From Escherichia coli (GTDB lineage Bacteria > Pseudomonadota > Gammaproteobacteria > Enterobacterales > Enterobacteriaceae): a DNA stretch of 64,000 bases. Under the pieces are notes generated by a model. The model worked only from the letters and a program-made list of their open reading frames with translations, had not been told where the DNA came from and made no database searches. Below are positions 10,766 through 18,206 of the stretch, one piece after another. The stretch's first letter is position 1; every line of letters starts with the position of its first letter. The stretch lies in NCBI RefSeq assembly GCF_046105845.1, contig NZ_CP151004.1; one strand, given 5' to 3'. Position numbers and translations under genes: made by a program.

Positions 10766-11935
10766 TCAGGCGGTTTCTCTTGCTGTCACTACGCCATTTT
10801 GCGCAGCCCACAGATTCACATCTTCCTTACGAATGGCGGCGGCCATCATGCCGGGGAATAAATCTGGGGTACAGGCAAAGGAGGGAATACCCATGGCGGC
10901 GAGTTTTCCTGCCAGTGACCGGTCGTAAAACGGCGCACCTTCATCGCTTAAGGCCAGCAGGGTAACCACCTGTACGCCGGACTGAATCAACTCACTGGCG
11001 CGTTGCAACAGATTGCGTTCCACCCCGCCTTCGTAGAGGTCGGAAATCAGCACCAGAATGGTATTGCGCGGATCGCGAATCAAAGACTGGCAGTAGCCCA
11101 CCGCGCGGTTGATGTCGGTGCCGCCACCCAGCTGTACGCCAAACAGCAGCTCTACCGGATCGTCGAGCTTCTCTGTCATATCAACGACTGCGGTGTCGAA
11201 AACCACCAGATGCGTTTTTACCGCCGGGAGCGATGCCATTACTGCGCCAAAAATACTGGAATAGACCACCGAGGAGGCCATCGACCCACTCTGGTCGATA
11301 CATAAAATGATCTCCTTTTGCGTGCGTTGAGACTTGCGCCCGTAGCCGATCAGCGTTTCAGGAACAATACTTTTATACTCTTCCTGCCAGTGGCGCAGGT
11401 TGGCGCGAATGGTGCGCTGCCAGTCAATTTCCGCGTGGCGCGGGCGACGATTACGTACCGCACGATTAAGAGCGCCGCTTACCGCGCTACGCATTGGCTC
11501 TTCAAGCTGTTTCATCAATTGCTCGACAACTTTACGCACCACAAGCCTGGCGGTTTCTTTGGTTTTGGCCGGAATTACGCCATTCAGCGACATCAGCGTG
11601 GAGACCAGATGAACATCAGGCTGGACGTTTGCCAGCATCTCTGGCTCCAGCAGCATACTGTGCAAATTAAGACGTTCAAAGGCGTCTTTTTGCATCACCT
11701 GAACCACAGAAGAAGGGAAATACTGGCGAATATCACCCAGCCAGCGAGCGACTTTGGGTGACGATCCACCCGTGCCGCCGCGTAATCCATGTTTACCGTC
11801 TGGCTGATAGAGCGCCGCCAGCGCGGCATCAATCGCGGACTCTCTGGCATCCAGCGCCACGTTACAGGCATTGTCGGCATCTTCTCCAAGGATCAGACGC
11901 CAGCGGCGCAGCCGTTCCATTTCGTTACTCGACAT
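10766..11935 (-). CDS. VWA-domain protein with MIDAS motif (CoxE-like)
   Basis: 389 aa; DxSxS motif in ILCIDQSGSMASS and downstream VLISDLYEGG; N-terminal RWRLILGE typical of CoxE-type VWA proteins; AGGGA SD upstream; 11-nt overlap with upstream gene. Confidence 0.8.
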   Translation of the reverse strand: MSSNEMERLRRWRLILGEDADNACNVALDARESAIDAALAALYQPDGKHGLRGGTGGSSPKVARWLGDIRQYFPSSVVQVMQKDAFERLNLHSMLLEPEMLANVQPDVHLVSTLMSLNGVIPAKTKETARLVVRKVVEQLMKQLEEPMRSAVSGALNRAVRNRRPRHAEIDWQRTIRANLRHWQEEYKSIVPETLIGYGRKSQRTQKEIILCIDQSGSMASSVVYSSIFGAVMASLPAVKTHLVVFDTAVVDMTEKLDDPVELLFGVQLGGGTDINRAVGYCQSLIRDPRNTILVLISDLYEGGVERNLLQRASELIQSGVQVVTLLALSDEGAPFYDRSLAGKLAAMGIPSFACTPDLFPGMMAAAIRKEDVNLWAAQNGVVTARETA

Positions 11936-16887: not shown

Positions 16888-18206
16888 TGTGCGCCTCCGG
16901 TTGCCCAAATCACGCTACCGGCAAGCCAGGCGCTACAGGGCGTCAGTTGCTGACCGTCCCATTCCCCCATTAGCATAAACGGCGCGCCGCCGCTGGCAGC
17001 CAGTAACCGCCAACCCTCGTCCGATGACAGGAGCGTCGGTAAGTGCTGGCCCTGTGTCGAGACGAATCGCCAGCCGCTCTCGTGCGGGTAAATCAATATT
17101 TCGCTTACTCGCAGCGGCAGAGGCCATTGCCAGGGATTCGCGCTAAGCCGCTGCGCCATGTCATGCAGCGCGTCCGGGAGGGGTAATTCTGCAAGCGGGA
17201 ATCTTTCACCGCGGGTAAACGGCTCCACAACCCGCGCCCGTAGCGGTGATGCGCCAGGGAAAAAGGCAAGCGCGCCCTGGCAGACTTGCCCGGTGATAAA
17301 GTGCTGGGGAAAGTTTTTACCACCGTGTGAATAGTCCAGCAGTAGCGCGGTGCGGTGGCTCTTTTCTCCGTACAACCAGACCCGGCGTCGCCACAGATTA
17401 TTCTCTTCTTGCGCGCTTTGACCTAAGATCTGCCAGTTATCGAGGCAGGTTAATCCGTCAGTGACGTCGTGTTTTTCCGGGGGTATTCCCAATGCCGCAT
17501 GGAGATCGCTAAGTTGTGCCGGGGATAACATTTGTTGCTGGCGCCAGGCGTCAATAATCAGCTGTAGCTGCCCCAGTTCTTTGCACAGGCTCGATGGCCA
17601 TACCTCGGCGGTAGTAAAAAGAGTGGTCAGATTGTTCAGGCGAGCGGCAATTCCCGGTAGTTGGGCGTCGACCATGCGGGCGGCGATCCCGGCAAAAGGC
17701 AACTGTTGTGCAGAGATCTGCGCCAGACCGTGGCGGATCAGGTCGTGCATCCACTGTTCGAGGAAATCCAGCCCCGCCGTCATTTTTTGGTTACGTGCCG
17801 CTTCCCGTTTGGCGGCAGCCTGCGGGTCGGCAGCTTTTGCCTCAGCCTGCTCTTTCTTCTCTTCTTTGTGAACCGCCCGCTGCTGGCGCGAGGTTAGCCA
17901 CTCGCTTACCCATTCCGGCGGCTCGCCAGCGGTGAAACTTGCGGTGTGTTGCACCTGGAGCAAAAGCAACGCAAGGCTATGTTTACAGGGGAATTTACGG
18001 CTGGGGCAGGAACATTTACAGGCCAGATCCTGTCTGTCGATTCGTACCTGATAAGGGCGGGAGCCGCTACCTTTACACTCTCCCCAGAAGGCGGTCTCGC
18101 TATATCCCAGCGTCGGCCATTTTGCGGGGGCAACCAGGCCACGAGCCGCTTTAACCGAGGCGTCATCGGGCGCCAGGGCTTGCACTGATTCAACGGTCAG
18201 TTCCAT
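16884..18206 (-). CDS. SWIM zinc-finger domain protein
   Basis: 440 aa; SWIM-type CxCxnCxH signature in ACKCSCPSRKFPCKH near N-terminus; Lys/Glu/Ala-rich linker; C-terminal domain unknown. Confidence 0.75.
   Translation of the reverse strand: MELTVESVQALAPDDASVKAARGLVAPAKWPTLGYSETAFWGECKGSGSRPYQVRIDRQDLACKCSCPSRKFPCKHSLALLLLQVQHTASFTAGEPPEWVSEWLTSRQQRAVHKEEKKEQAEAKAADPQAAAKREAARNQKMTAGLDFLEQWMHDLIRHGLAQISAQQLPFAGIAARMVDAQLPGIAARLNNLTTLFTTAEVWPSSLCKELGQLQLIIDAWRQQQMLSPAQLSDLHAALGIPPEKHDVTDGLTCLDNWQILGQSAQEENNLWRRRVWLYGEKSHRTALLLDYSHGGKNFPQHFITGQVCQGALAFFPGASPLRARVVEPFTRGERFPLAELPLPDALHDMAQRLSANPWQWPLPLRVSEILIYPHESGWRFVSTQGQHLPTLLSSDEGWRLLAASGGAPFMLMGEWDGQQLTPCSAWLAGSVIWATGGAQ

Follow-up and report, generated by a model that had tools for sequence, protein, structure and literature searches.

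In a 64,000-nt stretch of DNA from Escherichia coli (contig NZ_CP151004.1 of assembly GCF_046105845.1; hereafter the window), the minus strand carries five consecutive genes, which encode a SWIM zinc-finger protein, a DUF5691 protein, a MoxR-type AAA+ ATPase of the YehL subfamily, a DUF5682 protein, and a CoxE-type VWA protein. From their sequence, it is fairly probable that these genes form a single operon of two translationally coupled blocks, and that their products are subunits of one ATP-driven protein-remodelling complex. Across homologous loci, the junctions SWIM>DUF5691, DUF5691>AAA, and DUF5682>VWA are tight beyond the base rate, whereas AAA>DUF5682 is not.

The four junctions were read directly from the minus-strand sequence of the window. 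The TGA stop codon of the SWIM gene (16884-18206, 440 amino acids (aa); Pfam SWIM, E = 6.6e-7) occupies 16886-16884 and the ATG of the DUF5691 gene (15283-16887, 534 aa; Pfam DUF5691, E = 4e-121) occupies 16887-16885; the two genes have ATGA in common at 16884-16887 (-4 nt), with GGAGG (16893-16897) 6 nt upstream. The same geometry recurs between the DUF5691 gene, whose TGA lies at 15285-15283, and the AAA gene (14192-15286, 364 aa; Pfam AAA_5, the MoxR/dynein-related family, E = 1e-38), which starts at ATG 15286: ATGA is shared at 15283-15286 (-4 nt), and GGAG is found approximately 11 nt upstream. AAA>DUF5682 is the only one of the four junctions without an overlap. Here, a 17-nt spacer (14175-14191) separates the AAA stop codon (TAA, 14194-14192) from ATG 14174 of the DUF5682 gene (11925-14174, 749 aa; Pfam DUF5682, E = 7e-267), and AAGG is located at 14186-14183, 8 nt before this ATG. 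Lastly, the DUF5682 gene, which ends with TAA at 11927-11925, and the VWA gene (10766-11935, 389 aa; Pfam VWA_CoxE, E = 2.7e-52), which starts at ATG 11935, overlap by 11 nt (11925-11935), with AAGGGA approximately 5 nt upstream. This is the geometry that a previous, sequence-only reading of the window had described (two shared ATGA, a 17-nt spacer with AAGG, and an 11-nt overlap), and it is confirmed at every junction.

The start codons called here are not arbitrary, since both RefSeq/PGAP and the N-termini of homologues agree with them. The same four starts are annotated by RefSeq/PGAP in an E. coli genome that is 98% identical. The family consensus N-termini of DUF5691 (MxxWxxLxxxALLGT) and DUF5682 (MxxxxHxFGIRHH) begin at the called ATG, and the -11 start of the VWA gene places seven residues ahead of the conserved LRRW block (MSSNEMERLRRW), an extension upstream of LRR that has the same length in the junction sequences of other loci. 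Longer versions appear in the open reading frame (ORF) table, from TTG 16908 for DUF5691 and from GTG 15400 for AAA, and their extra residues have no counterpart in homologues. It is scarcely credible that the overlaps are annotation artefacts that hide true starts further downstream and ordinary intergenic gaps: in DUF5691, AAA, and DUF5682, the stretch from the called ATG to the first conserved block offers no other in-frame start, and PGAP calls identical starts. What such an explanation has in its favor is a second candidate start for VWA, ATG 11920, located +4 nt past the DUF5682 stop codon. However, even this start would leave a gap of just 4 nt, an equally tight junction, and the -11 start has the better Shine-Dalgarno motif.

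Within the window alone, this packing is unremarkable and not beyond chance. In the equivalent annotated region, ATGA is shared by four of the 19 other same-strand neighbor pairs (nanE/nanK, nanK/nanQ, elbB/mtgA, and rapZ/npr); in E. coli as a whole, 707 of 2,987 co-directional pairs (24%) lie within -8 to +6 nt, with ATGA as the commonest configuration (PMC10666635). At this base rate of 24%, and if independence is assumed, we calculate that two or more tight junctions among four are expected about a quarter of the time. Overlaps are among the commonest features of bacterial operons and carry little information on their own; as ATGA overlaps and translational coupling are textbook features, the finding as initially stated changes nothing.

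To place these junctions in a wider context, 80 loci with DUF5682 relatives were collected from contigs representing one genome per species. They span Proteobacteria, Desulfovibrionaceae, Verrucomicrobia, Planctomycetes, Acidobacteria, Bacteroidota, Chloroflexi, Cyanobacteria, and Actinomycetota, and in about 60 of them, in phyla from Proteobacteria to Cyanobacteria, all five genes are found on the same strand and in the same order. Junction statistics were computed for the loci outside E. coli, with starts projected from the N-termini of the window proteins; tightness (-14 to +6 nt) was compared with a base rate of 25% in a genus-level binomial test. The genes overlap at SWIM>DUF5691 in 51% of 61 loci (median -1 nt; p = 2e-6), at DUF5691>AAA in 41% of 64 (median +10.5 nt; p = 0.0035), and at DUF5682>VWA in 56% of 68 (median -4 nt; p = 3e-9), whereas AAA>DUF5682 overlaps in 7% of loci (median +19.5 nt; p = 0.36). 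When the window and locus L001 are included, the DUF5682>VWA distance is -4 nt in 25 of 70 loci and -11 nt in 11 of 70, which makes the latter a recurrent class. More loci (eight of 59) show the pattern of the window (overlap, overlap, short gap, overlap) than any other single pattern. The junction sequences themselves differ among the loci in which tightness is conserved.

A second line of evidence comes from Shine-Dalgarno signals. In the window, the duplex with the anti-Shine-Dalgarno sequence is -9.5 kcal/mol for DUF5691 (GGAGG), -6.6 kcal/mol for AAA (GGAG, at long spacing), -3.0 kcal/mol for DUF5682, and -5.3 kcal/mol for VWA. In the family-wide test, which covered the non-Bacteroidota loci, overlapping junctions contain Shine-Dalgarno-like motifs within the upstream coding sequence, with medians of -6.1 to -6.6 kcal/mol compared with -2.2 to -3.0 kcal/mol for the coding background (p = 1e-7, 7e-6, and 9e-12). 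That the embedded motifs stand so far above the coding background argues for selection rather than accident. At AAA>DUF5682, no Shine-Dalgarno enrichment was detected in any distance class (p = 0.2).

Experimental work on other gene pairs indicates what such junctions can do. Strict termination-reinitiation coupling is experimentally documented for the geometry of the two ATGA junctions, and it was seen in 13 of 14 native overlapping pairs, E. coli pairs included; of five E. coli pairs from which the Shine-Dalgarno motif was removed, three lost 60-90% of reinitiation and a fourth lost all of it, and one of the five tested E. coli overlapping pairs, bioB/bioF, was initiated de novo (PMC6728339). 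Coupling also falls steeply with distance: a gap of +14 nt costs 40-80% of reinitiation and one of +38 nt nearly abolishes it (PMC10666635). On the strength of the embedded motifs and the conserved tightness, coupling is likely at SWIM>DUF5691, DUF5691>AAA, and DUF5682>VWA. AAA>DUF5682 is probably a weak link, conserved as such, rather than a coupled joint, because it is spaced at +17 nt, forms a duplex of -3.0 kcal/mol, overlaps in 7% of loci family-wide, and lacks Shine-Dalgarno enrichment. The translational coupling that the sequence-only reading had proposed for the whole cluster is thus likely to hold at the three overlaps and appears weak at the remaining junction.

If coupling takes place, it is more likely to proceed by termination-reinitiation than by the unmasking of RNA structure, because the start regions are 40-70% unpaired. 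Local folding gives them mean unpaired values of 0.40-0.70, with none strongly sequestered, and sequestration of the ribosome-binding site was accordingly rejected as a coupling mechanism. Regarding the features associated with termination-reinitiation, the -4 nt overlap is present at the two ATGA junctions, the 11-nt overlap represents a rarer class, and the +17 nt gap falls outside; an embedded Shine-Dalgarno motif precedes DUF5691, AAA, and VWA and is weak or absent before DUF5682.

The predicted products are those of a MoxR-VWA system with additional components. The ATPase has an AAA_5 domain and a Walker A motif (GVPGTAKS, from the alignment with YehL), is closest to YehL, and is encoded in a cluster with a VWA gene, all of which place it in the YehL subfamily; this is one of seven MoxR subfamilies and its function is uncharacterised (PMC3893208). 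At the Walker B position (residues ~158-163), our own reading of the motif gives R-V-E-E, compared with F-E-E in YehL and the usual hhhhD-E of AAA+ proteins; the Asp-to-Glu variant is common to the window ATPase and YehL. By sequence, the solved proteins nearest to the window ATPase are midasin (1e-15) and NorQ (5e-6). In the VWA protein, the metal ion-dependent adhesion site (MIDAS) motif is intact (DQSGS...T...D), and the alignment with YehP displays DQSGS, GGGTD, and SDLYEGG. A site of K-12 YehP (yehP, locus L002, 12968-14104) is not conserved in this window protein, where the corresponding residues are VGYCQ.

The AlphaFold2 (AF2) model of the DUF5682 protein is confident, with a predicted local distance difference test score (pLDDT) of 90.5 and a predicted template modelling score (pTM) of 0.85. 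It consists of an N-terminal alpha/beta domain (~residues 1-270), with a parallel beta-sheet core flanked by helices, and a C-terminal part of ~480 residues that models as an alpha-solenoid. Five residues (R12, H13, H14, E37, and H213) are invariant in 68 sequences, YehM included, and in the model they sit after strands 1 and 2 and a later strand, where a 2His/2Glu motif is expected. It is moderately supported by this model that the N-terminal domain is TIKI/TraB-like, which would suggest an enzymatic activity for DUF5682. A Foldseek search of the model against the PDB gave no significant match, and a Pfam scan of the N-terminal domain at E values up to 10 gave no match to TraB. For the remaining proteins, the predicted structure of the SWIM protein has a pLDDT of 92.8, and homologues of DUF5691 are called HEAT-repeat proteins by some sources. 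Sequence searches of the PDB returned nothing for four of the five proteins. No informative family was found in NCBIfam, where the GvpN and MadB models scored low, far below their cut-offs; similarly, the Pfam bpMoxR match was below threshold (21.6 versus 27 bits). Rates of evolution are strikingly uneven within this one cassette: across loci, identity to the window proteins is 68-86% for AAA, 58-83% for VWA, 42-59% for DUF5682, 25-52% for SWIM, and 25-42% for DUF5691, the least conserved subunit.

Transcription signals are consistent with the proposal that the five genes are one operon, which we infer to be expressed as one transcript. A consensus scan, which is weak evidence, found no minus-strand promoter match within the first four genes; the sole match on this strand (10789-10762) falls at the VWA gene's 3' end. 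As for terminators, the scan gave one terminator-like match on the minus strand (11102-11089, inside VWA), which is no more than shuffled sequences give. An intrinsic terminator (GGCCGGA, 9 nt, TCCGGCC, then TTTTTT; -13.2 kcal/mol) is nevertheless located at 10730-10758 on the minus strand, starting 8 nt past the VWA stop codon; it was missed by the scan, in which loops were limited to 8 nt. At the other end, sequence reading gives an upstream untranslated region of 232 nt (18207-18438, minus strand), which contains a weak sigma-70-like candidate, TTGTTT-18 nt-TATACT (18320-18349), with eight of 12 positions matched by eye and the scan threshold set at nine of 12. Directly after the gltD stop codon, cassette-specific sequence forms a perfect 14-bp hairpin (18395-18429, minus strand; -26.7 kcal/mol). 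With the nearest U-run 11 nt away, this hairpin does not qualify as a canonical terminator; a role in RNA stability or processing, separating gltBD from the cassette, is conceivable.

The model that we infer comprises a single transcript, actual coupling, an expression step-down, a physical complex, a catalytic activity, and a biological target. In the first block, ribosomes that end translation of SWIM would reinitiate at the ATGA of DUF5691, and those that end DUF5691 would do so at the ATGA of AAA, both steps being aided by GGAG-type Shine-Dalgarno motifs within the upstream coding sequence. The passage from AAA to DUF5682 would be at best weakly coupled, and probably lowers the synthesis of DUF5682 and VWA relative to that of the ATPase, which is a hexamer in this family. 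In the second block, DUF5682 and VWA would be coupled through their 11-nt overlap. If the proteins act like CbbQ/CbbO, NorQ/NorD, and CoxD/CoxE, the VWA protein may capture a target through its MIDAS site, and the MoxR ring would then remodel this target; on the same analogy, DUF5682 would be a scaffold with a TIKI/TraB-like, possibly hydrolytic domain, which perhaps cleaves, and SWIM together with DUF5691 would be a faster-evolving recognition or regulatory module. The junction data further suggest that SWIM:DUF5691 and DUF5682:VWA may be direct partners. More speculative, and in its entirety rather unlikely, is a five-subunit machine made of a YehL-type MoxR ring, a CoxE-type VWA adaptor, an active TIKI/TraB-like hydrolase, and a recognition pair of SWIM/OB-like and HEAT-like proteins, in which the conserved junction architecture would be functional, the ratio of subunits being determined by a deliberately weak joint between the two coupled blocks, behind the hexameric ATPase; this machine would be an ATP-gated processing or conflict module whose target is not encoded nearby.

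Several observations weigh against the model of two coupled blocks. Gaps are present in 40-60% of loci at each of the "coupled" junctions; overlap is thus far from universal, and coupling is not essential to the system. The projected starts may misplace divergent N-termini, and a few genomes separate DUF5682 and VWA from the other cassette genes. Each downstream gene has a Shine-Dalgarno motif of its own, no start is strongly sequestered, and independent initiation of each gene is possible. The hairpin that follows gltD has no adjacent U-run and lacks the form of a canonical terminator, so that transcription from gltBD might also extend into the cassette. In DUF5682, the first Glu of the 2His/2Glu motif is apparently replaced by the invariant R12. 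Finally, no paper that mentions DUF5682 or DUF5691 was found in the literature searched.

Some of these points would fit a rival explanation, according to which the overlaps are a neutral by-product of a compact operon whose genes are co-transcribed and are each initiated independently at their own Shine-Dalgarno motif. The loss of a stop or start codon readily creates ATGA or TGATG, tight junctions make up 24% of E. coli co-directional pairs and ATGA is shared by four of 19 pairs in this region, non-overlapping junctions are found in 40-60% of homologous loci, and bioB/bioF, one of five tested pairs, initiates de novo. We nonetheless consider this explanation unlikely, given that tightness is conserved across phyla in a junction-specific manner and above the base rate at three junctions, even though the sequences differ, that Shine-Dalgarno enrichment occurs specifically at overlaps, and that 13 of 14 native overlapping pairs were strictly coupled (PMC6728339). 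At the opposite extreme, all five cistrons could be coupled in series and yield fixed, near-equimolar subunits, which was the strong form of the sequence-only reading. All four junctions are indeed at most 17 nt long, and tight E. coli pairs are enriched for heteromeric complexes (30.4% versus 6.8% of pairs more than 20 nt apart, a 4.5-fold difference; PMC10666635). However, equimolar or fixed stoichiometry does not follow from packing or from coupling: when de novo initiation occurs after upstream translation has opened the site, the downstream protein's level may exceed or trail that of the upstream one (PMC6728339), and the proteins of the RavA/ViaA operon, an E. coli MoxR/VWA pair, are present at ~350 versus 90 molecules per cell (PMC3893208). 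In addition, AAA>DUF5682 (+17 nt, -3.0 kcal/mol) is longer than the +14 nt gap that already costs 40-80% of reinitiation, and it is consistently non-overlapping, both family-wide (7% overlap) and in yehLMPQ (+10 nt). Six MoxR subunits make up a ring, to which one or a few VWA partners bind, and this is at odds with near-equimolar synthesis. Coupling in series is therefore quite improbable, and the step from packing to stoichiometric co-expression is not borne out.

A different question concerns the role of the cassette. It could be a conflict or defence system, in which an invader is sensed by SWIM/OB and DUF5691, ATP-dependent switching falls to the MoxR-VWA pair, and DUF5682 supplies the effector in its TIKI-like domain. 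Such a role would be in line with the patchy distribution of the cassette (33 of 5,426 complete E. coli genomes), with its self-contained nature, lack of conserved neighbors, and variable locus, and with the much faster evolution of SWIM and DUF5691 relative to AAA and VWA; moreover, the TIKI superfamily includes the toxin effectors RRSP and HopBA1, and MoxR-vWA pairs with a third component are known conflict systems (PMC7159879). On the other hand, PADLOC-DB v2 yielded only two marginal IetA P-loop matches for the ATPase (E ~1e-3, 30 residues) and none for the other four proteins, and Pfam scans of the five proteins detected no VMAP or iSTAND domains. The same five families recur without effector swapping, AAA and VWA are unusually conserved (58-86% identity across phyla), and phages essentially lack the cassette, which is also rare on plasmids. 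A defence function is therefore doubtful, and we tentatively place the maturation of a cellular enzyme slightly ahead of it.

Beyond the common five-gene arrangement, the 80 loci include a number of variants. DUF5682 and VWA are found without upstream SWIM, DUF5691, and AAA in L036, which has type II secretion neighbors, and in L055, next to HypF, while L041 contains DUF5682 alone, with cell-envelope proteases as neighbors; these arrangements show that the cassette can be split. L042, L047, L065, L074, and L078 likewise have no SWIM, DUF5691, or AAA match. In Chitinophagaceae (L038, 11453-14407; also L064, L066, L070, and L076), a gene for a ~980-aa protein with DUF4132 and HEAT repeats lies 50-67 nt after VWA. 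DUF4132 is the domain of YehI, and yehI and the pseudogene yehH adjoin yehLMPQ in K-12, which suggests that both paralogous systems recurrently have the DUF4132 gene as an accessory partner. SWIM and DUF5691 are fused in a 987-aa ORF of a metagenome-assembled Isosphaeraceae genome (L075, 3766-6730), which reflects either a genuine but rare fusion or a frameshift introduced during assembly where the ATGA junction usually lies. As none of the 120 top DUF5691 proteins in the database is fused and the L075 case may be an artefact, Rosetta-stone fusion is weak evidence of interaction. With regard to flanking genes, alternative-frame ORFs of GC-rich genomes contaminated an initial pass; once the cluster span had been excluded, no neighbor was common to more than five of the 80 loci, which indicates that the five genes are a self-contained module.

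In the window, the five genes, the upstream region, and the terminator make up an accessory cassette of 7.7 kb (10700-18438) between gltD and a truncated yhcG, with gltB and gltD upstream. Its edges lie where the window ceases to resemble other E. coli genomes, exactly at the gltD stop codon (18439) on one side and at ~10699, inside the truncated yhcG, on the other. Of 5,426 complete E. coli genomes, 5,416 contain the gltBD region and 33 the five-gene segment; E. coli SMS-3-5 (NC_010498.1) and CFIAFB20140388 are examples of strains with the island. It is from this presence and absence, rather than from composition, that accessory status is concluded: a foreign origin could not be diagnosed from base composition, at 55-60% GC for the island genes and 55-57% for gltB and gltD. 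Downstream, the minus strand carries the yhcG remnant (10218-10574; 118 aa, the DUF1016 N-terminal part of a PDDEXK nuclease) and a 101-aa ORF (9825-10130). The truncated yhcG arrangement, defined by at least 80% of window positions 9700-10800, occurs in 718 complete E. coli genomes; in K-12, the equivalent locus presumably contains gltF and the yhcA-G genes. A search of a phage collection found the cassette to be essentially absent from phages, and on plasmids it is rare and mostly confined to large non-mobilisable replicons. The only match in the phage collection is a DUF5682 relative (29.5% identity over 93% of the query) at 10644-12758 of MT835988.1, a 14-kb unannotated "Bacteriophage sp." contig from human faeces that is possibly a mis-binned bacterial contig. 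Rfam detected no RNA family in or adjoining the cassette. Elsewhere in the window, its gathering-level matches are the small RNA ArcZ (28371-28478, minus strand), the greA leader (49977-50098, plus strand), and the rimP leader (60783-60883, plus strand), as well as two tRNAs (56751-56834 and 60618-60691, both on the plus strand), which are expected features of the E. coli chromosome.

The value of these results lies in the underlying object, a widespread and self-contained five-gene MoxR-VWA cassette that is a paralogue of the long-unexplained E. coli yehLMPQ and for which we found no published functional study. The comparison of junctions offers hypotheses, namely the pairing of SWIM with DUF5691 and of DUF5682 with VWA, and a step-down in expression after the ATPase, which could guide efforts to reconstitute the YehL subfamily, of all branches of MoxR ATPases the least understood.

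In their geometry, the two ATGA junctions do not differ from those of the coupled E. coli pairs hyfH-hyfI, menD-menH, and ydbH-ynbE, which likewise combine a Shine-Dalgarno motif within the upstream gene with a -4 nt ATGA overlap; among bacteria and archaea, no junction class is commoner than this overlap (PMC6728339, PMC10666635). The -11 nt overlap of the window, in contrast, belongs to a rarer class than these pairs, and the +17 nt spacing is outside the efficient range. With the TIKI/TraB/PrgY/ChaN/erythromycin-esterase superfamily, the DUF5682 model has in common a parallel beta-sheet core between helices and, where the catalytic motif would be expected, an invariant His after strand 1, a Glu after strand 2, and a later His in GxWH; however, there is no match at the sequence level and no significant one with Foldseek, the motif is R-H-H instead of E-x-H, and the domain is fused to an alpha-solenoid of ~480 residues.

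As in CbbQ/CbbO, NorQ/NorD, CoxD/CoxE, and RavA/ViaA, an AAA_5/MoxR ATPase is encoded beside a VWA protein with an intact MIDAS, here of the VWA_CoxE family, and NorQ is among the closest solved relatives, although identity is low (E = 5e-6). Unlike these two-component chaperones, the cassette has three further conserved subunits, and no client enzyme is encoded nearby in any of the 80 loci. The vWA-MoxR systems with VMAP, iSTAND, or beta-propeller components also combine MoxR and vWA with dedicated components in a mobile, patchy cassette, and those with iSTAND have the same CoxE-type 4-helix N-terminal region on the vWA protein (PMC7159879). They differ in that Pfam detected no VMAP, iSTAND, or beta-propeller component among the five proteins of the cassette, whose VWA protein has no variable C-terminal effector domains and is of constant length and architecture across loci; YehL, YehM, and SWIM are not named in the description of these ternary systems (PMC7159879).

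The cassette differs from yehLMPQ of K-12 in several respects. The SWIM gene is last in yehLMPQ and first in the cassette, and the DUF4132 genes yehH and yehI, a locus that formerly went by the name molR, adjoin the yeh locus, whereas none is found by the cassette. The SWIM protein and YehQ are unrelated outside the zinc finger, and DUF5691 has no detectable counterpart in YehQ or YehI; BLAST and hhalign comparisons of DUF5691 or the SWIM protein with YehI and YehQ found the zinc finger only, and a relationship of this kind was rejected. Nevertheless, the two systems share a distant paralogous core, with identities of 41% between the ATPase and YehL (350 residues), 27% between DUF5682 and YehM, and 37% between VWA and YehP, and both encode a SWIM-containing protein. 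They also share their junction logic, with distances of +10 nt for yehL-yehM, -8 nt for yehM/yehP, and -4 nt for yehP/yehQ.

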